Assembly: GCA_031425235.1 (NCBI GenBank)
Contig: JANPIZ010000008.1
Location: forward strand, 91,377-155,376
Direction: 5' to 3'
Source: Candidatus Nomurabacteria bacterium
GTDB lineage: Bacteria; Patescibacteriota; Minisyncoccia; Phycocordibacterales; UBA9973
DNA: 64,000 nt
The position numbers and the translations under genes are program-made. This document shows, piece by piece, positions 4,937 through 50,577 of the stretch (its first letter is position 1; each line of letters starts with the position of its first letter). The notes below the pieces were generated by a model, which worked only from the letters and a program-made list of their open reading frames with translations, was not told the DNA's origin and searched no databases.

Positions 4937-5725
4937 GTGGAAACAGAAAGTTCGAGCCAGATATATACCGTAAAAACTGAAGCGTTTGAAGGGCCATTTG
5001 GCCTTCTTTTGGATTTAGTTGAGAAGCGCAAACTTTTTATAAATGATGTATCCCTGGCCAGTGTTACTGAAGATTTCTTGAGCCATATGAATAGTCTCGG
5101 CGACAGCGGCTCTTTAAGTCCAGCCGAAATAACGAGCTTTATTCAAGTAGCTGCGACTCTCATACTCATCAAATCAAAATCTTTACTGCCAAATCTTTCT
5201 TTGACGGACGAAGAGCAGGGTGACATAAAAAACCTAGAAGAACGGCTGCGACTATATAGAATTTTCATGGGCTTGGGGGGCTCTGTGAAAAGTAGTTTTG
5301 GAAAAGAAATGATTTTTGCGCCACTTGAACGCAAGAATGAAATCCTGGTATTTTTACCCGACAGTAGAATTACCAAGGACACCATGATGGAATTTGCACG
5401 CAATGTGCTCGGCGGGATGCCAAAAAAGGTTTTCTTGCCCGAAGTCGAAGTACGCAAGGTTATCAATATTGAAGAAGTTATTGATAACTTAACACAACGA
5501 ATCCAGAGCGCAATCACAATGAGCTTTGCTGAATTTTCTGGTAAAAAATCCGGACAACACACTCGAGCAGAAAAGGTGACAGTGATCGTGAGTTTTCTTG
5601 CTATGCTGGAGATGATAAGAAATGGTATATTGAATGCTGTTCAGAATAATCACATGGAAGATATTATTATTGAGAAAATTCCAGACTCGGCACTAGTAGA
5701 AGAAGTCGCGGGTGAAATAAATTAA
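4937..5725 (+). CDS. scpA: segregation and condensation protein A
   Basis: GTG start. N-terminus FEGPFGLLLDLVEKRKLFINDVSLASVTEDFL is typical ScpA. It is followed immediately by scpB. Confidence 0.8.
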   Translation: METESSSQIYTVKTEAFEGPFGLLLDLVEKRKLFINDVSLASVTEDFLSHMNSLGDSGSLSPAEITSFIQVAATLILIKSKSLLPNLSLTDEEQGDIKNLEERLRLYRIFMGLGGSVKSSFGKEMIFAPLERKNEILVFLPDSRITKDTMMEFARNVLGGMPKKVFLPEVEVRKVINIEEVIDNLTQRIQSAITMSFAEFSGKKSGQHTRAEKVTVIVSFLAMLEMIRNGILNAVQNNHMEDIIIEKIPDSALVEEVAGEIN

Positions 5726-5734
5726 ACAAAACAC

Positions 5735-6325
5735 ATGGATGAATTAGAAACAAAAATTGAATCAGTGTTATTTTGGAAAGGTGAGCCCATGTCACGAAAA
5801 AAGCTCGCGACTATTTTGAAAGTTTCTGAAAATGAAATAAACGATGCAGTAGAGAAACTTAAAAACAATTTGGCACACAGAGGCATCGTGTTACAAGAAA
5901 AAGAGAATGAAATAAATCTCGGTACAGCGCCCCAAATATCAAATTTAATTGAGGAACTTCGTAAAGAGGAGTTGAACAAGGAGCTTTCAAAGGCAACACT
6001 AGAAACATTATCAATCGTCCTTTACAAAAATGGAGCTACACGTGCTGAGATAGATTATATCCGTGGAGTAAATTCGAGCTTCACATTGCGTGCGCTTTCA
6101 GTGCGAGGATTAGTAGAGAAAACAGTAAGTGAGACAGATAACCGACGCTATATATACAAACCAACATTTGAACTCCTTTCATTTATGGGTGTGGCGAAGA
6201 TAGAGGACTTACCAGACTACGAACAAGTAAATAACTCAATACATAATGCTGTAAAAGAAGAGGATGTGGTCGCCGAAGAGTTGCCGATTCAAAACTTAGA
6301 AGATGAAACCACCTTCGAAAATTAA
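5735..6325 (+). CDS. scpB: segregation and condensation protein B
   Basis: Winged-helix ScpB pattern (EAxLF..GEP...L, TLETLSIVLYKNGATRAEIDYIRGV). Confidence 0.8.
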   Translation: MDELETKIESVLFWKGEPMSRKKLATILKVSENEINDAVEKLKNNLAHRGIVLQEKENEINLGTAPQISNLIEELRKEELNKELSKATLETLSIVLYKNGATRAEIDYIRGVNSSFTLRALSVRGLVEKTVSETDNRRYIYKPTFELLSFMGVAKIEDLPDYEQVNNSIHNAVKEEDVVAEELPIQNLEDETTFEN

Positions 6326-6369: not shown

Positions 6370-8076
6370 ATGAAACAAGAAAGTGAAACAAAATCGTGCC
6401 AGAATTGCAAACAAGACTTTACTATCGAGCCGGACGATTTTGGATTTTATGAAAAAATAAAAGTACCTCTGCCAACTTTTTGCTCAGAATGCCGCAGGCA
6501 AAGAAGGCTTGCATGGAAGAATACATACAACTTATACAACAATTCTTGTAGTCTTTGTGGTAAAAACATTATTTCAATATATTCCCCTGATTCCTCTTTA
6601 ATTATTTACTGTGTTAGCTGTTTTTGGAGTGATAAATGGGATGCATATCAATACGGGCAAGATTTTGACCCTAATAGGTCTTTTTTTGAACAGTATATAG
6701 ATCTTAATAAAAAGGTACCAAAAATAGCTTTAATGAATGATGATGGTATTGCAAGTGTAAATAGTGCTTATTGTCACGATGTTGCTTTTTCGAAAAATTG
6801 CTACATGGTATTTATTTCCTGGAAACTTGAAAATGTGATGTATTCAGGAATGTTAAACAAGGGTCGCGAAATATGCGATTGCCTTTGCATGCAAGATTTT
6901 TGTGAGTATATGTACGAGTCAATGTTTGTAGATGAATGTTATAAATGCAGATATGTGACGTATGGTAGCATGCTACAAAATTGCGATTTTTGTTATGATT
7001 GTCGTGAGTGCAGTGATTGCTTTATGAGCTTTGGCTTGCGTAATAAAAAATATTTTTATAAGAACAAACAGTATTCCAAAGAAGAATACGAAAAAATTCT
7101 TAAATCTTATCAATTGCATACACGAACGGGTTGGGAAAGAGCCAAAAATGAATATAAAGAATTTATAATAACTTATCCTCGTCGTTTTGCTATGATAAGG
7201 AATTCAGTTAACTGTACGGGAGATGACCTTATAAGATGTAAAAACACGAGAGATTCCTTTTTTGCTCCCTTTAGTGAAGACTCTCGCTTTGTTGCAGGAG
7301 GGGTTAATTTTAAGAATTGTTATGATTTGTCTGGTGGAGGGGAAGTAGAGTATAGTTATGAATCTATCACGCCCGATCAATCATATAATAATTTTTTTAG
7401 TATCTATTCTTGGAAAAATAAAGAAATAGCTTATTGTGATAATTGTCATTCGTCTAATAACCTTTTTGGTTGTGCAAGCTTGAAAAAAGGTGAATACTCA
7501 ATATTAAATAAGAAATATTCAAAAGAAGATTATTTTAAATTAAAAGAAAAAATAATAATAAAAATGAAACATGATGGGGAATGGGGAGAATTTTTTCCAG
7601 TTCGATATTCATATTTTGGATATAATGAAACTGAAGCTTTTGATATGAATATTTTATCAAAACATGAAGCTGAAAATTTAAACTATAAATGGCGAGATAA
7701 TTTACAAAGAACTATTGGACAAGAAACTATCTCTCAAAAGGAAATACCAGATTCTATTTTTGATACAACTGAGTATATTTTATATGAAATTTTAAAATGT
7801 GAATCTTGCTCTCGAAATTATAAAGTTACGAACGACGAGCTGGTGTTTTACAAAAGAATGAATGTACCTATTCCAAAAATTTGCTTTTTCTGTAGAAATA
7901 AAAATCGCTTAAATACTAGAAATCCGTTTAAGCTTTGGCATCGCTCATGTATGTGTACTGTCAAGAATCACTTTCATGGAGAAAATAATTGTAAAATAGA
8001 ATTTGAAACTTCCTATGCCCCTGATCGGCCGGAGATGGTATATTGTGAAAAATGTTATCAAGCTGAAGTTTACTAG
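6370..8076 (+). CDS. Large cysteine-rich protein, paralogue 1 (unrecognised family; terminal zinc-ribbon-like motifs plus internally duplicated Cys-repeat core)
   Basis: 568 aa. N-terminal CQNCKQDF...FYEKIKVPLPTFCSECRRQRRL...C..C is repeated near the C-terminus (FYKRMNVPIPKICFFCRNKNRL...C.C). N-K-K-Y-S-K-E-E/D-Y occurs twice. The protein aligns end to end at roughly 40% identity with the ORF at 47848-49554. Confidence 0.8.
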   Translation: MKQESETKSCQNCKQDFTIEPDDFGFYEKIKVPLPTFCSECRRQRRLAWKNTYNLYNNSCSLCGKNIISIYSPDSSLIIYCVSCFWSDKWDAYQYGQDFDPNRSFFEQYIDLNKKVPKIALMNDDGIASVNSAYCHDVAFSKNCYMVFISWKLENVMYSGMLNKGREICDCLCMQDFCEYMYESMFVDECYKCRYVTYGSMLQNCDFCYDCRECSDCFMSFGLRNKKYFYKNKQYSKEEYEKILKSYQLHTRTGWERAKNEYKEFIITYPRRFAMIRNSVNCTGDDLIRCKNTRDSFFAPFSEDSRFVAGGVNFKNCYDLSGGGEVEYSYESITPDQSYNNFFSIYSWKNKEIAYCDNCHSSNNLFGCASLKKGEYSILNKKYSKEDYFKLKEKIIIKMKHDGEWGEFFPVRYSYFGYNETEAFDMNILSKHEAENLNYKWRDNLQRTIGQETISQKEIPDSIFDTTEYILYEILKCESCSRNYKVTNDELVFYKRMNVPIPKICFFCRNKNRLNTRNPFKLWHRSCMCTVKNHFHGENNCKIEFETSYAPDRPEMVYCEKCYQAEVY

Positions 8077-8078
8077 GC

Positions 8079-8130
8079 CTCCGGCTAGTTTATTAACTCT
8101 GCCCTTACTAGCCGGGGTAAGCTATTTTAA
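8079..8130 (+). terminator. Hairpin terminator after Cys-rich paralogue 1
   Basis: ccggctagt...actagccgg 9-bp stem followed by a T/A-rich run. Confidence 0.5.
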
Positions 8131-8295
8131 AAAAATACACTAAAATGCTATACTTTTAGAGCATGTATCCGGTTAGTAGAAAATGACATGGGATAAATCC
8201 GGATATAGTTTTATGGAAATTAAGTGAGTTATTATTAATTTATTATATATAAAATATACTATGCCTAACAAGGCAATGTCATTTTTCACTACCGG

Positions 8296-41490: not shown

Positions 41491-43449
41491 TTACAATAAA
41501 TCTTCAGGGTCTACAAATATTTCAAAATCAAAAGGCAATCCTCTTAGTTTTGTAAGTAATTTCTGGTCTATTGTGGTGTTCGTGGAAAGCTCCGGAAGGG
41601 ACCAATCTTTTGTTTCTATCTTTATAAGGGCGTTAACCACATATTTTCTTTTAACATACGATACAAAACCACTAAAAATGAGCGGTTTGTACTCAGCCAA
41701 AACCTCTTCGAATATTTTCTTTGCTTGAGTCGTATTCGTTTTACTGCCTGAATATTTTATTTTTATAAAACGCTTAAAGGGAGGGTATCCAAGGCGAGCT
41801 CTATCTTTTAACTCGCTTCGAATGAATAATAGGAGATTTCTTGATTGAATAGCCTTAATTGCGGGATCAGTGTCATTTTTTGTTTGAATAATAAGTTTTT
41901 GTGATGTTTTAGTGATAATGCCACTTACAATCTGTAGCACTTTTTCACTGATAGTAAAATTTGGAATACTCCAAAATGAATCAAAGGAAGCTACTACCGA
42001 CAATGGCACTTTATTTTTTATGTAATGTATTGCCATTTCAGTACCGACTAAAATAGCGCCAGAAGTTTCTTCAAACTCAGTGATTATTTTCAACGCCTCC
42101 TTTTTTGTTTTTACGGATTCCCGGTCCAATCTAAATATTTTTACGTCTGGAAAGATAGTGCTGAGCTCCTGTTCGACTGTTTCAGTACCTATACCAAGTG
42201 GGGAGAGGTTCCAGCTATCACAGTTAGAACAAATGACGTCGCTATTTTTTTCGTCTCCACATCTATTACAAACAAAAAATCTTTTACCATCTCTATTCGA
42301 CATGTATAACACGAGTGGCGACGAGCAGTTTTTACAGCTTACTAATTCCCCGCAGTCACTACAGATTGTCTGAGTAGCTAAACCTTTCCGCAGCGTAAAT
42401 ACAAAAACATTATTTTGCTTTGAGAGAGAACTGGCTATTTCTCGCAAGCTTTTTTGGGGAAACACTTTAAAAGAAAATGCTTTGCTCTCGACTGCAGGCG
42501 TAGAAGCTTTTAATACTTTAGGATTTTGTATGTCTATTTCTCCCTCGAAGTTGAATCGAAATGATAAAGGATGCATTACTGGCAGGCCTTCGGTAGTCTG
42601 CCTTGATATTGTTTCAAATCGCAGAAGGCTATCACTAATAATGTACTTAGCATTAATGTTTGAAGCAAAAATTTCAACAAACGTCCTCAAGTCAAAGTGA
42701 GGCCTTGCAATCATTTTATAGTTTGGTGAACTCTCGTGTTCAAGTATTATTACTCCAACATCAGTACGGGGAATTGACAGAAAAGGAGTCGTAGCAAGTA
42801 TTAAAACAGTATGCTCTACATTCATAACATTCTTGAATTTTTCAAGGATTTTTTTTGAACTGTATCCCCCATGAAATGTAAAAGTAAATTGCTCTATTCC
42901 CTTCGAAAGGTATTCTTCAAAGTCTACTACATCTTTTTCAGTAGGTAAAACGACAAAGACAGATTTTTTGTTGGCAAAATTTTCACGAATCAAAGTTTTA
43001 TAAATAGATATACGATTTTCAAAATCTTCTTGTAAAAGCAATTTTTCATTCTTGAGTTGGGATAAAGAATTTTTAAAAATTTTCTTAGTATCTATGTATG
43101 CTGCTATAGTATCGTATTCATCTCGAAATAAAGCTGGGATAAGGGAAGTGATGGCACTGTTTTTACTAGAAGCAAAATATACCCCCGTCGACATGATTGC
43201 TTCTATGTATTCTTTTCGGAAAATAGACTTTCCTTTTACTTCAAGGATTTTTTTTAAATTAAAATCCATACCCTTAATGTTCATTTTAGTATCTGTTGCA
43301 TTTTCAACTGAAACAACGAGTGCAAGAGTTTTTGTATTACGCACATAGACACTTACGATGCTCCCCGGGCCTATGTTTTTAGTGGTGAAATATGATAAAT
43401 CGTTCTTTAAAAGTCCCTTTTTTAGCGGTATAACGTTCACGATTTTCAT
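41491..43449 (-). CDS. priA: primosomal protein N' (PriA)-like helicase with degenerate Walker A
   Basis: Cys4 zinc-binding insert CSDCGELVSCKNCSSPLVLY...CNRCG, motif-II-like LEHESSPNYK and HGGYSS, but no GxGKT P-loop. Confidence 0.65.
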   Translation of the reverse strand: MKIVNVIPLKKGLLKNDLSYFTTKNIGPGSIVSVYVRNTKTLALVVSVENATDTKMNIKGMDFNLKKILEVKGKSIFRKEYIEAIMSTGVYFASSKNSAITSLIPALFRDEYDTIAAYIDTKKIFKNSLSQLKNEKLLLQEDFENRISIYKTLIRENFANKKSVFVVLPTEKDVVDFEEYLSKGIEQFTFTFHGGYSSKKILEKFKNVMNVEHTVLILATTPFLSIPRTDVGVIILEHESSPNYKMIARPHFDLRTFVEIFASNINAKYIISDSLLRFETISRQTTEGLPVMHPLSFRFNFEGEIDIQNPKVLKASTPAVESKAFSFKVFPQKSLREIASSLSKQNNVFVFTLRKGLATQTICSDCGELVSCKNCSSPLVLYMSNRDGKRFFVCNRCGDEKNSDVICSNCDSWNLSPLGIGTETVEQELSTIFPDVKIFRLDRESVKTKKEALKIITEFEETSGAILVGTEMAIHYIKNKVPLSVVASFDSFWSIPNFTISEKVLQIVSGIITKTSQKLIIQTKNDTDPAIKAIQSRNLLLFIRSELKDRARLGYPPFKRFIKIKYSGSKTNTTQAKKIFEEVLAEYKPLIFSGFVSYVKRKYVVNALIKIETKDWSLPELSTNTTIDQKLLTKLRGLPFDFEIFVDPEDLL

Positions 43450-45809: not shown

Positions 45810-46670
45810 ATGCTTGAAAAGCCAATCACGAAACAAGTAGCAACTAATCTTGGTAATCCAAATAATTACTCATTGATAAGTCCATCAGTGAAGTTAGGCT
45901 TTTTGGCAGATGAGGAAATTAAACAAAATAGAACAAGAATTGAGAACGACGAAGAAAGACATATCAGAACCTTTACCGACAAAGAGACTGGTGAAGTGTT
46001 TTACGAAATGAAACCAGAGAGCAATCCAAAGGCACAAATGCTTTTGTCCCTTTTTCTAAAAGGGGTAGTAAATGTTACTGATATTATAAAGGTTGATAAT
46101 GTATATTATGCTCATAAGCAAGATTTCAGTAAAATTGAATCGACTGAAAATAATATCGTTCCTCAATTAAAAGCTGATATGTTATTATTAAATTTAGGAT
46201 TTGAAGATTTTGATCATAAATATTATGAGCGCAGCACAAGTGAGCGAGATCAAATCATTGCAAAACAAGACGGGCTTTCTGAACACCACAACTTAATCAC
46301 AGATGAAGCTAATGGAAAGTATGTTTTCTTTGATTTCAATAACCCTTCTTGGCAATGGCTGGAAAAAATTAAAAAAACTCGTGATCCAGAAATGTTAGAA
46401 AAAATATTTGAAGCTAAGTTTACTAACAAATACTTTTCTGAAGACATAAATAAAGACGAAATACTGGAAACTATTAAAAATAAATCAACGACTCTTTTAA
46501 ATAATTATGGTAATCTTGAGTCCGATGCTTTCAAACAAATTGTAAAAAGATCGGAAATTGAATTATCAGAAAATGACAGAGAACTCGTATTAAACGGTAT
46601 TAAATTAAGATTACAAACACTGGTTAAAGTAATATCAAAACTTAAACCTAATAATAACAAAAATATATAA
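45810..46670 (+). CDS. hypothetical protein (286 aa) in the frr-rseP interval
   Basis: Intact ORF. No signal peptide or TM segment. No family recognised. Confidence 0.45.
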   Translation: MLEKPITKQVATNLGNPNNYSLISPSVKLGFLADEEIKQNRTRIENDEERHIRTFTDKETGEVFYEMKPESNPKAQMLLSLFLKGVVNVTDIIKVDNVYYAHKQDFSKIESTENNIVPQLKADMLLLNLGFEDFDHKYYERSTSERDQIIAKQDGLSEHHNLITDEANGKYVFFDFNNPSWQWLEKIKKTRDPEMLEKIFEAKFTNKYFSEDINKDEILETIKNKSTTLLNNYGNLESDAFKQIVKRSEIELSENDRELVLNGIKLRLQTLVKVISKLKPNNNKNI

Positions 46671-47847: not shown

Positions 47848-49554
47848 ATGACAAGTGAAACAAAAAATTGTCAAAATTGTAAAACAGATTTTGTAATAGA
47901 ATCTGGAGACTTTAACTTTTATGAAAAAATAAAAGTTCCACCGCCGACCTTTTGTCCGAACTGTAGACTTACGCGTAGATTTCTCCATTCAAATGAAATG
48001 GTGTTATACAAACGTAAATGCGACCTGACTCAAAAAGATATTTTTAGCATGTATCCACCTAAAACACTTTTTCCTGTCTATGAGACATCGGAGTGGTATT
48101 CTGACAAATGGGATGCATATGAATATGGGATGGATTTCGATGAGACCAGACCCTTTTTAGAGCAATTTTTAGAGCTCCAAAATAAAGTACCGCGTATGGC
48201 TCTGACACAACAAGGTCAAACAATTAATAGTGCGTATACTCATAGAGTATCTTATCCAAAAAACTCATACATGGCTTTTCGAGCTTCTTATCCAGAGGAT
48301 TGTTTGTATGTGTATAACGCCAAGTACACTCGAAATTGCGCTGACTCAATATGGATTTTTGACTCAGATCTTTGTTATGAATGTATAAATGTAGAAAATT
48401 GTTACAACTTAAAATATAGTCAAGAATGCAAAGATTCCCGTGATTCCAGCTTTTTATACAGTTGTAAAAACACCTCAAATTCAACTTTATGTGTTAATTT
48501 AGTCAACGCAGAGTGCTGTATTTGGAATAAAAAATATACAAAAGAAGAGTACGTCAAAAAATTAGCAAACATGGGACTCAATAAATTTTCTAACGTTGAG
48601 AAGCTAAAGAAAGAGTTTGAAGAGTTTAGAAAGAAATTTCCACAAAGAGCTGTGGCTTCATTAAAATCTGAGCAAGTGTCTGGTAACTGGTTTTCGGGTT
48701 GCAAAAATGTTCATGAATCATTTGATTGCGTCAATGTAAAAGATGGCAAATATTTATTCATGGTTTTCAATGCCGAAGATTGTATGGATTTTTTCGAATG
48801 GGGCAACAAAGCCGAGCAAATCTATGAGACAACTAATGCTGGTCTCAATGTTGCCAGATTATACTTTTGCTTTCAGTGTTGGATGGGAGCAACAGATCTG
48901 TATTACTGCAACACATGTCCTGGTGCACGAAACTGCTTTGGTTGCGTGGGTCTAAAGAAAGGCGAATACTCTATTCTAAACAAGAAGTATTCGAAAGAAG
49001 AATATGAAATTTTAAAAGAAAAAATTATTAAGCATATGCAAAAAATGCCTTTTATAAGTAATACTGGTATTGAATATAAATTTGGGGAATTTTTTCCTCC
49101 AGAATTTTCAGATCATGCTTATAATGAAACCATCGCAAATTATTATTTTCCACTTTCACAAGAGGAAGCTTTGTCTCGCGGTTATAAATGGAAAGACAAG
49201 GAAAAAGTAGTCCACCAGACGACAGTCAAAGCTAAGGATCTGCCAGACACAATAGAAGAAGTAACTGACGCCATACTCAATGAAATCATAGAGTGCGGAG
49301 AAAAAGATAATCCAGAATCAGTTGGAGCGTTTCGCATAACTCCAAATGAGCTCAATTTTTATAGGAAAATGAATATTCCACTACCGAGAGTATGCTTTAG
49401 CATCAGACACTTGCGCCGGATGGACAGGAGACCAAAACTAAACATTTTTAAGAGAAAATGTGATAAGTGTAGTGTTGAAGTTGAAACAGTATATACTAAA
49501 GAGCATGCACCGGTATTGTATTGTGAAAAATGTTATCAACAAGAAGTTTACTAA
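47848..49554 (+). CDS. Large cysteine-rich protein, paralogue 2
   Basis: 568 aa with the same architecture as 6370-8076. Identical C-terminus YCEKCYQ.EVY. Conserved LKKGEYSILNKKYSKEEY block. Confidence 0.8.
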   Translation: MTSETKNCQNCKTDFVIESGDFNFYEKIKVPPPTFCPNCRLTRRFLHSNEMVLYKRKCDLTQKDIFSMYPPKTLFPVYETSEWYSDKWDAYEYGMDFDETRPFLEQFLELQNKVPRMALTQQGQTINSAYTHRVSYPKNSYMAFRASYPEDCLYVYNAKYTRNCADSIWIFDSDLCYECINVENCYNLKYSQECKDSRDSSFLYSCKNTSNSTLCVNLVNAECCIWNKKYTKEEYVKKLANMGLNKFSNVEKLKKEFEEFRKKFPQRAVASLKSEQVSGNWFSGCKNVHESFDCVNVKDGKYLFMVFNAEDCMDFFEWGNKAEQIYETTNAGLNVARLYFCFQCWMGATDLYYCNTCPGARNCFGCVGLKKGEYSILNKKYSKEEYEILKEKIIKHMQKMPFISNTGIEYKFGEFFPPEFSDHAYNETIANYYFPLSQEEALSRGYKWKDKEKVVHQTTVKAKDLPDTIEEVTDAILNEIIECGEKDNPESVGAFRITPNELNFYRKMNIPLPRVCFSIRHLRRMDRRPKLNIFKRKCDKCSVEVETVYTKEHAPVLYCEKCYQQEVY

Positions 49555-50394: not shown

Positions 50395-50577
50395 ATGTAT
50401 TGCATGAAGTGTCGTAGGAAAATTACTGAATCCTATGATGAAAAATGTCGCTGTGGATACAGTCACACTAGTATGGAGTGCGAGTGTGAAAAAGTAACGG
50501 AACCCTGTCCAAATTGCGGCAGTGGAAATTATTATTTAGGATCCTGCAGTAAATGCAGATATCCCCACGAACCATAA
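50395..50577 (+). CDS. small cysteine-rich protein (60 aa, 11 Cys; multiple CxxC/CxC pairs, zinc-ribbon-like)
   Basis: Canonical GAGGAGG Shine-Dalgarno 8 nt upstream of the ATG, which is rare in this window. Its own terminator lies at 50595-50626. Confidence 0.55.
   Translation: MYCMKCRRKITESYDEKCRCGYSHTSMECECEKVTEPCPNCGSGNYYLGSCSKCRYPHEP

Follow-up and report, generated by a model that had tools for sequence, protein, structure and literature searches.

Internally duplicated solenoid proteins with paired zinc modules at both ends in Patescibacteria, and their possible link to an orphan VirD4-like ATPase

Among 2,918 genomes of the candidate phyla radiation (CPR), 5,713 homologues of VirD4-like coupling ATPases have been described, only 148 of them near virB4 and without relaxases, and their role has been left open (10.1101/2025.01.22.634366). 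Small archaeal (Methanosarcina) proteins with the spacing CxxC-x17-CxxC bind zinc as measured by inductively coupled plasma mass spectrometry (PMC12704099), and 12-residue beta-solenoid turns are known from the antifreeze protein of Tenebrio molitor (TmAFP). All three bear on the protein family considered here, which is represented by two genes, p1 (6370-8076) and p2 (47848-49554), in a 64,000-nt stretch of Candidatus Nomurabacteria bacterium (assembly GCA_031425235.1, contig JANPIZ010000008.1, positions 91,377 to 155,376 of the forward strand; "the window" below is this whole stretch). The proteins consist of a duplicated solenoid core held between two pairs of zinc modules, and genes of the family recur in other genomes beside an ATPase of the VirD4 type, of which they may be clients or adaptors.

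Both open reading frames (ORFs) encode 568 amino acids (aa), and their products align over their full length at 38% identity and 55% positives (BLASTP, E 2e-124), in agreement with a preliminary description, made from the letters of the window, in which they appeared as equally long paralogues with the same motif at both ends and an internally duplicated core. Sub-blocks were compared with one another by hhalign on a 65-sequence family alignment spanning both subfamilies. Residues 1-60 matched residues 468-530 (probability 98.5%, E 2e-14), residues 55-100 matched 520-568 (90.8%), and the core at 100-250 matched the core at 255-400 over 144 columns (99.8%, E 1.9e-29); control pairs of the N-terminus or the linker against the core gave no match. 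Both duplications, that of the end motif and that of the core, are therefore real and well outside what chance would give, and the internal one survived the self-alignment that had been named beforehand as able to refute it. A motif of the NKKYSKEEY type does occur twice per protein (N232-KQYSKEE-Y240 and N380-KKYSKED-Y388 in p1, NKKYTKEEY and NKKYSKEEY in p2), and the block LKKGEYSILNKKYSKE[DE]Y is nearly identical in the two copies, both as first described. The layout given at that time, a zinc ribbon at each end of two units of Cys repeat plus NKKYSKEEY, is correct in outline but not in allotting one zinc module to each end, since each end has two. From the N-terminus the order is a zf_Tbcl treble clef and a CxxC-x17-CxxC ribbon, then twice a helix, a nine-turn solenoid and an NKxYSKEEY cap, then an acidic linker, and finally a second treble clef and ribbon (Table 1). 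Conservation peaks in the zinc units, in the helix RPFFEQF before the first solenoid, in the caps (consensus C.NCFGC.NLRNK.Y.I.N.QYSKEEY and FGCVGL..K.YCILNKQY.KEEY) and in the linker, the body of the solenoid being variable. The linker, of mean net charge -6.4, is among the best conserved segments outside the zinc units, and the searches found no fold match for it. An AlphaFold2 model (predicted template modelling score 0.84, mean predicted local distance difference test score, pLDDT, 82) gives the caps and linker a pLDDT above 90 and the zinc modules values from 80-90 (p1 module 1) to above 90. Neither sequence contains a hydrophobic segment fit for a signal peptide or membrane helix, both have an overall charge near neutral, and the proteins are cytoplasmic.

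The family had at first seemed unplaceable in any named domain, which is true of the whole protein but not of its ends, these being homologous to zf_Tbcl (PF13451) and zf_Tbcl_2 (PF23477/TIGR04272). A free-standing 93-aa bacterial protein reached by tblastn (locus L087, 3995-4276) scores 88.7 bits against PF13451 and 72 bits against PF23477, above the Pfam cut-offs (gathering cut-off 24 bits for PF13451, 27 bits for PF23477; 36 bits for TIGR04272), and matches each end unit of the family over the full length of that unit, the N-terminal one, residues 7-85, with an hhalign probability of 98.3% (E 1e-14) and the C-terminal one with 97.0%. Direct scores lie below these cut-offs: zf_Tbcl reaches 17.5 bits (E 0.004) at residues 5-44 of p2 and has no match in p1, and zf_Tbcl_2 reaches 10.5 bits with PF23477 (residues 540-565) and 9.8 bits with TIGR04272 (residues 56-87) in p1. 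At E<=0.01, zf_Tbcl is matched by 15 of the 65 aligned family members, the best at 1.4e-5, and zf_Tbcl_2 by 7. The exact CxxC-x17-CxxC spacing of TIGR04272 is found in p1 at C60-x2-C63-x17-C81-x2-C84 and in p2 at C538-x2-C541-x17-C559-x2-C562, while in p1 module 4 an insert parts the first Cys (C527/C529) from C541 and in p2 module 2 three of the four Cys are gone. When conservation was computed for each site over 347 family members, the Cys of sites 1 and 4 proved nearly invariant (97-99% and 98-99%), those of site 2 less so (59-84%), and those of site 3 uneven (C477 99%, C480 46%, C505 85%, C508 82%); p2 has complete four-Cys sites at two of the four positions, 1 and 4. The terminal four-Cys sites are probably structural zinc sites. 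The family shares with the free-standing zf_Tbcl plus zf_Tbcl_2 proteins of about 90 aa the CxxC...CxxC ligands, the FY..K motif, the basic helix after the second knuckle and the x17 ribbon, and differs from them in holding this unit twice, around a 370-residue duplicated solenoid and linker; the match names parts of p1 and p2 but does not explain them.

The elementary repeat of the core is not the Cys-containing unit of about 22 aa first proposed. In the autocorrelation of column profiles the highest values stand at a lag of 12 residues (0.34 and 0.35); a sub-period of 3 and harmonics at lags of 24 and 36 accompany this peak, and the linker, taken as control, gives a flat curve. About nine such turns make up each half. 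At the periodic positions Cys and Ser interchange among the 347 members, with Cys at a frequency of 0.45 and Ser next, for example, or Ser commonest and Cys at 0.25-0.37. A Cys frequency above 80% is reached at only five or six core positions, none of which builds a conserved four-Cys cluster, and most core Cys are lost between p1 and p2, few being common to both. Because Cys and Ser are exchanged at spacings of 3 and 12, the core Cys are read here as small, inward-pointing packing residues of a narrow solenoid and not as metal ligands. The closest folds are those of TmAFP (PDB 1ezg), the curli protein CsgA (8c50), bactofilin and the left-handed beta-helix acyltransferases, at about 6% sequence identity, too little to establish homology. 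The 12-residue turn is common to TmAFP and the present family, but TmAFP is a secreted protein with disulfide bonds and an ice-binding face of the TxT type, whereas p1 and p2 have no signal peptide, no invariant disulfide-forming Cys in each turn and no such face, exchange Cys with Ser, and possess conserved caps, helices and zinc units. No bactofilin Pfam domain or clear fold match was found for p1 or p2, nor any Pfam match to the pentapeptide repeats or autocorrelation signal at lag 5. With the ankyrin, tetratricopeptide/Sel1, leucine-rich and pentapeptide repeat families, the family has in common that it consists, in reduced genomes, of multi-copy tandem repeat scaffolds that vary at their surfaces and are conserved at framework positions; it is set apart by its 12-residue Cys/Ser-cored repeat, a fixed length of about 570 aa and obligatory zinc units at the ends, and its paralogues are old, with conserved orthologues, in contrast to the recent expansions of such solenoid-repeat families.

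No whole-protein match to a characterised family emerged from Pfam, NCBIfam, PADLOC or solved structures. Searches of Pfam, NCBIfam, PHROGs and PADLOC with p1 and p2 yielded only the sub-threshold zinc-finger matches and one unnamed PHROG family, phrog_15341 (function not assigned), which matches p2 residues 150-318 in the solenoid-cap region (window ~48295-48801; E 1.1e-8) and 29 of the 65 members (best E 1.9e-11). The family profile has no match in the PDB, and the LIM-domain structures that a single-protein search had brought up over a Cys-rich stretch (E ~4e-4) are for that reason judged compositional. Viral sequences contributed little: tblastn against 50,697 phage records returned only a zinc-module match in a seemingly bacterial fragment and nothing for p2, and a scan of 2.9 million viral contigs in IMG/VR returned one weak family fragment. 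No description of the family was found in the literature searched, from which most subscription journals were absent. The parts are of known kinds, treble-clef and ribbon zinc fingers and a beta-solenoid, in a combination for which no prior model, solved structure or paper was found.

The supposed pair is paralogous but far from isolated, its two genes being members of a very large multigene family whose arrays reach 10 copies. Searches with either protein brought up about 6,000 significant homologues, all unnamed or "hypothetical", and their named sources are Patescibacteria. A HMMER scan of 1.84 billion representatives gave 5,214 clusters at E<=1e-3, at the stricter limit of E<=1e-30 at least 2,231 (50% identity) are left, and the best 150 cluster representatives measure 541-612 aa apart from a few that seem truncated (433-529 aa). 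GTDB species genomes contributed at least 566 confirmed stretches; the 80 loci retained come from metagenome-assembled genomes titled Nomura-, Staskawicz-, Sung-, Lipton-, Harrison- or Jorgensenbacteria, Paceibacterota/Minisyncoccia or Peribacteria, or bearing generic labels including "bacterium". One homologue, P0135, is 71% identical to p2 and labelled "Burkholderiales bacterium"; it most likely belongs to a mis-binned or mislabelled Patescibacteria contig. Both genes of the window are retained under selection, in keeping with the retained function supposed at first, each having orthologues of 72-75% identity in other genomes (75% for p2).

Array sizes were counted with the family profile on six-frame ORFs of 87 sources, including the window and two duplicate loci, the loci spanning at most 18 kb. 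Single copies were found at 25 loci, two at 28, three at 12, four at 10, five at 5, six at 3, seven at 3 and ten at 1 (L029), and within arrays the genes stand in tandem on the same strand. Where loci belong together the numbers rise, to 9 copies on one 45.7-kb contig (L026 and L035), 9 in L021 and L077, and 7 in L048, L059 and L060. One 13.7-kb locus (L003) holds six family ORFs, the first cut by the locus end, and a 103-aa DUF1653 gene lies inside its array (5700-6011). Adjacent copies have a median identity of 41% (range 28-63%) and the closest relative of each copy in another species' locus a median of 63%, so that the arrays consist of old paralogues with conserved orthologues; recent tandem duplication and diversity-generating arrays were rejected on the same figures. 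Average-linkage clustering divides the family into 17 to 89 subfamilies depending on the cut-off. The copy in the slot between ScpB and MraY is 41-55% identical to p1, against 58-74% for the ScpA, ScpB and MraY of these loci, from which it follows that the family changes more quickly than the core genes around it without turning over rapidly.

When the neighbours in 84 family-seeded loci were clustered, the commonest was a soluble P-loop ATPase of about 500 aa, with which family genes are interspersed (38 ORFs in 24 of the 84 loci). It matches TrwB_AAD_bind (PF10412), T4SS-DNA_transf (PF02534), TraG-D_C, HerA/DUF87, the CD1115 VirD4-like family (NF045973, 1e-15) and the PADLOC model mad8 (E 1e-12 to 1e-14). 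Between species it retains 72-83% identity. The association was also seen in the reciprocal direction, in a metagenome scan seeded with the ATPase: of 80 loci, 58 contain the family, as do 43 of the 52 that are at least 8 kb long, and in 31 of the 40 cases with at least 2.5 kb of sequence downstream of the ATPase a family gene starts within 1.5 kb on the same strand. The conserved order is SecD-SecF-[Sigma70_r4+HARE-HTH protein]-M-TM180-A-[X]1-6, in which A is the ATPase, X a family gene, TM180 a 180-aa membrane protein, and M a protein of 470 aa that has two membrane helices at its N-terminus but neither a Walker motif nor a Pfam match; M and A together look like a split coupling protein. At locus L160 (4565-11443), as at L103, L088, L121 and others, SecD, SecF, a 339-aa Sigma70_r4 and HARE-HTH protein, M, TM180 and the ATPase are all encoded on the same strand upstream of arrays. 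A third type of ATPase carries a C-terminal CxxC-x17-CxxC ribbon that scores 59 bits with TIGR04272 and 55 bits with PF23477, above both curated cut-offs, and that matches the family ribbon (p1 module 2) with a probability of 93.4% (hhalign). Between 18 and 20 such fusions were found. At L097 (12613-14460), L042 (14783-16888), L036 (14102-16414) and L009 (9952-11853), with about 15 more of the kind elsewhere, the ribbon motif reads CSxCGKxTxVPFxPxxGRPVYCKxC and is followed by a long low-complexity tail.

Two further contexts place family genes among housekeeping genes. In the first, ScpA-ScpB-[X]n-MraY-FtsW, found at 10 loci besides the window, the position is that of p1, which in the window lies in the order scpA-scpB-[p1]-mraY-murF. 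In the second, S4-RpoA...S9-GrpE-[X]n-(PaaX-like gene, opposite strand)-DnaK-ATPase-[X], the ATPase is of the ribbon-fused type and is followed by family genes, and the usual adjacency of grpE and dnaK is split by the insertion of 1-4 family genes between them. Loci with such inserted arrays are L030, L032, L036, L038, L042, L052, L062, L075 and L079, and the gene just before dnaK encodes a PaaX_M-domain protein of about 175 aa on the opposite strand. The position between grpE and dnaK led to consideration of a DnaJ-type co-chaperone, which was rejected: neither a J domain nor CxxCxGxG repeats are present, and no DnaJ or DnaJ_CXXCXGXG Pfam match was found in p1, p2 or the 65 members.

The reading preferred here, to which a probability of about 0.4 is given, is that the family proteins may be clients or adaptors of the VirD4/TraD-like ATPase, with the zinc units docking and the solenoids giving specificity. 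They would act with an orphan, split coupling ATPase made up of a membrane protein and a soluble P-loop ATPase. The terminal zinc units would form a common handle by which each protein docks either to the ATPase or to the target on which the latter acts, a role proposed because the zinc units and linker are conserved in all paralogues and because the same ribbon is fused to a paralogous ATPase. The solenoids, proposed as the specificity part because their surfaces vary between paralogues, would confer on each paralogue its own binding specificity, and each would be an adaptor for the ATPase or a client of it. A more sweeping version is improbable. In it the thousands of orphan VirD4-like ATPases of the CPR would have their missing clients in this family, as a new class of zinc-tagged beta-solenoid cargo or adaptors; the ATPase would recognise the treble-clef and ribbon units, and the diversified solenoids would be delivered to the host cell or take up material from it.

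As with the partners and substrates of the type IV coupling proteins (T4CPs) VirD4, TraD and TrwB, the family genes are linked to a P-loop ATPase of this kind, here encoded away from virB4 as reported for most T4CP homologues of the CPR (10.1101/2025.01.22.634366). In contrast to known T4CPs, the ATPase is soluble and may be anchored by the separate upstream membrane protein, no relaxase or known substrate signal is present, and no known T4CP partner has the architecture of p1 and p2, whose own link to such an ATPase is one of neighbourhood in other genomes. Several observations weigh against the client or adaptor reading. No ATPase of the VirD4-like type is encoded in the 64-kb window, and many family genes, including p1 and p2, lie far from such an ATPase among housekeeping genes. 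A median of about 450 nt separates the ATPase gene from the first family gene, too much to establish a joint operon. All the loci belong to a single radiation in which gene order is inherited widely, the block SecD-SecF-HTH-M-TM180-A-[X]n being conserved in its entirety, and the basis of the link is gene neighbourhood together with one shared-domain fusion. The zf_Tbcl and zf_Tbcl_2 modules are named domains without an assigned function, the solenoid cores of the AlphaFold2 model have a pLDDT of 59-70 and no DSSP strands, and tightly folded zinc and solenoid domains would be awkward cargo for a type IV channel.

A related explanation is that the proteins are translocated cargo or effectors whose conserved termini are recognised by the VirD4-like ATPase, which leave through the CPR type IV system or another channel for the host cell that these episymbionts need, and whose solenoids engage different host targets. 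Tandem arrays of diversified paralogues adjoin a coupling-type ATPase, the C-terminus is invariant and its zinc module Arg-rich and basic, the ScpB-MraY-slot copy evolves faster than ScpA, ScpB and MraY, and CPR type IV systems lack relaxases and have no known substrates (10.1101/2025.01.22.634366), all of which is as an effector family would have it. Set against these are the absence of a signal peptide or known secretion signal from p1 and p2, zinc-stabilised and solenoid folds that resist the unfolding thought necessary for type IV export, and the conserved orthologues that each paralogue possesses, some at a fixed chromosomal position among core genes, unlike typical effector turnover. CPR homologues of T4CPs, moreover, are rarely near virB4, and one of them is non-essential in a Saccharibacterium (10.1101/2025.01.22.634366). 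Export to a host as effectors is thus judged unlikely.

The basic treble-clef helices suggest another role, that of nucleic-acid-binding factors in transcription, RNA metabolism or association with the chromosome, the adjacency to the ATPase being a syntenic accident. Treble-clef and ribbon fingers with Arg-rich helices (CR..RR here) often bind nucleic acids, and CPR genomes have few recognised regulators. The average net charge of zinc module 3 across the family is +5, and family genes stand beside scpAB, rpoA, ribosomal protein genes and the gene for the Sigma70_r4/HARE-HTH protein. The proteins as wholes, however, are neutral to acidic (family mean -5), with acidic solenoids and linker, they show no above-threshold similarity to any DNA- or RNA-binding domain, and the fusion of the ribbon to an ATPase would be left unexplained; this explanation is given a low probability.

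Polymer-forming or scaffolding cytoskeletal elements, comparable to the bactofilin beta-solenoids and serving cell division or chromosome segregation, would account for the beta-solenoid core, for the conserved slot between scpAB and mraY-ftsW and the position of p2 downstream of mreB, and for an ATPase of the FtsK/HerA/VirD4 superfamily. But conserved helices and zinc units cap both ends of the solenoid and would block head-to-tail stacking, and ten or more diverged paralogues per genome are unusual for a filament protein; a cytoskeletal role is accordingly given little credence.

A role as sensors in anti-phage defence, in which variable solenoids would detect invaders and signal to a HerA/mad8-like ATPase, is very improbable: the ATPase does match the mad8 and HerA models, the arrays are diversified and the phrog_15341 solenoid module recurs among the members, but p1 and p2 have no PADLOC match, the ATPase keeps its high identity across species within a fixed housekeeping block, unlike mobile defence islands, and the family is almost absent from viral contigs. 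Least compatible with the data, and scarcely credible, is the metal- or redox-linked Cys-rich buffer or Fe-S scaffold of the preliminary description, which could point to 36 Cys in p1 and 30 in p2 but meets with core Cys that are not conserved ligands and give way to Ser in a considerable fraction of members, an interchange on which a metal-cluster core was rejected, with the fit of their 3 and 12 spacing to inward-facing solenoid positions, and with the well conserved orthologues of p2 despite its loss of two of the four terminal sites. Of the functional suggestions made from the window that of a metal or redox core is weakened and that of nucleic-acid binding left where it stood, and the only functional lead is the link to the VirD4-like ATPase, which could not be seen from there.

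The genomes of Paceibacteria are mostly well under 1 Mb, and in several of those sampled this 1.7-kb gene is nevertheless present 7 to 10 times or more, taking up roughly a few percent of the sequence. The family thereby ranks with the larger investments still to be explained in a major radiation of uncultured bacteria. The association with the ATPase joins the orphan VirD4-like ATPases, whose role in the CPR is debated, and the solenoid family into one testable system. If that link is functional, it would for the first time give a context to the zinc domains zf_Tbcl and CxxC-x17-CxxC, which are found in bacteria and archaea; if it is only syntenic, the fold would still be an unusual design, a duplicated 12-residue Cys/Ser-cored solenoid clamped by two pairs of zinc fingers. 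Should the zinc-tagged cargo or adaptor reading be true, the family would give molecular access to the way in which Paceibacteria live as episymbionts. Its combination of parts, its size within reduced genomes and its association with orphan coupling ATPases make the family a worthwhile target.

Table 1. Positions in the window of p1, p2, their parts and adjacent signals.
Feature	Position	Strand	Description
Gene p1	6370..8076	+	568-aa ORF; family profile score 891 bits; full-length homologues; slot ScpA-ScpB-[X]-MraY
p1 zinc module 1, residues 7-50	6388..6519	+	zf_Tbcl-like treble clef; C10, C13, C38, C41, then basic helix CRRQRR
p1 zinc module 2, residues 55-90	6532..6639	+	CxxC-x17-CxxC ribbon; C60, C63, C81, C84
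p1 half-repeat 1, residues 102-250	6673..7119	+	conserved helix RxFFEQ, 12-residue beta-solenoid of about nine turns, cap NKQYSKEEY (7063-7089), helix
p1 half-repeat 2, residues 255-398	7132..7563	+	helix, second nine-turn solenoid, cap LKKGEYSILNKKYSKEDY (motif 7507-7533), helix
p1 acidic linker, residues 403-470	7576..7779	+	family consensus YGEFFP..SPF.YNET.AQ.YFPL.KEEA...G..W.D
p1 zinc module 3, residues 472-520	7783..7929	+	second zf_Tbcl-like treble clef; C477, C480, C505, C508; basic (+6)
p1 zinc module 4, residues 522-568	7933..8073	+	terminal ribbon; C527 (or C529), C541, C559, C562; invariant C-terminus YCEKCYQxEVY
Terminator-like hairpin	8100..8119	+	24 nt past the p1 stop codon; consensus scan, weak evidence
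Promoter-like site	8126-8154	+	upstream of mraY; consensus scan, weak evidence
Gene p2	47848..49554	+	568-aa ORF of a different subfamily; profile score 853 bits; between rseP and the M24 peptidase gene
p2 N-terminal zinc unit, residues 5-88	47860..48111	+	module 1 intact (C8, C11, C36, C39); module 2 degenerate (only C58)
p2 duplicated solenoid core, residues ~100-398	48145..49038	+	caps NKKYTKEEY and NKKYSKEEY
p2 linker and C-terminal zinc unit	49039..49551	+	module 3 degenerate (C483, C516 only); module 4 intact (C538-x2-C541-x17-C559-x2-C562)

The surroundings of p2 read mreB-holB-frr-ORF286-rseP-[p2]-M24 peptidase...ddl, where rseP and ddl were labelled by reading the translations. ORF286 (45810-46670, +; 286 aa) lies between the gene for ribosome recycling factor and rseP, directly upstream of the string of genes that includes p2, and has no Pfam match. 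Divergent from mreB is an ORF of 652 aa (41491-43449, -) with no Pfam match at E<=0.001 and a CxxC...CxxC...CxxC stretch (CSDCGELVSCKNCSSPLVLYMSNRDGKRFFVCNRC). Between the M24 peptidase gene and ddl an ORF of 60 aa (50395-50577, +) contains 12 Cys (MYCMKCRRKITESYDEKCRCGYSHTSMECECEKVTEPCPNCGSGNYYLGSCSKCRYPHEP) and may encode a small zinc-ribbon protein or be a chance ORF.

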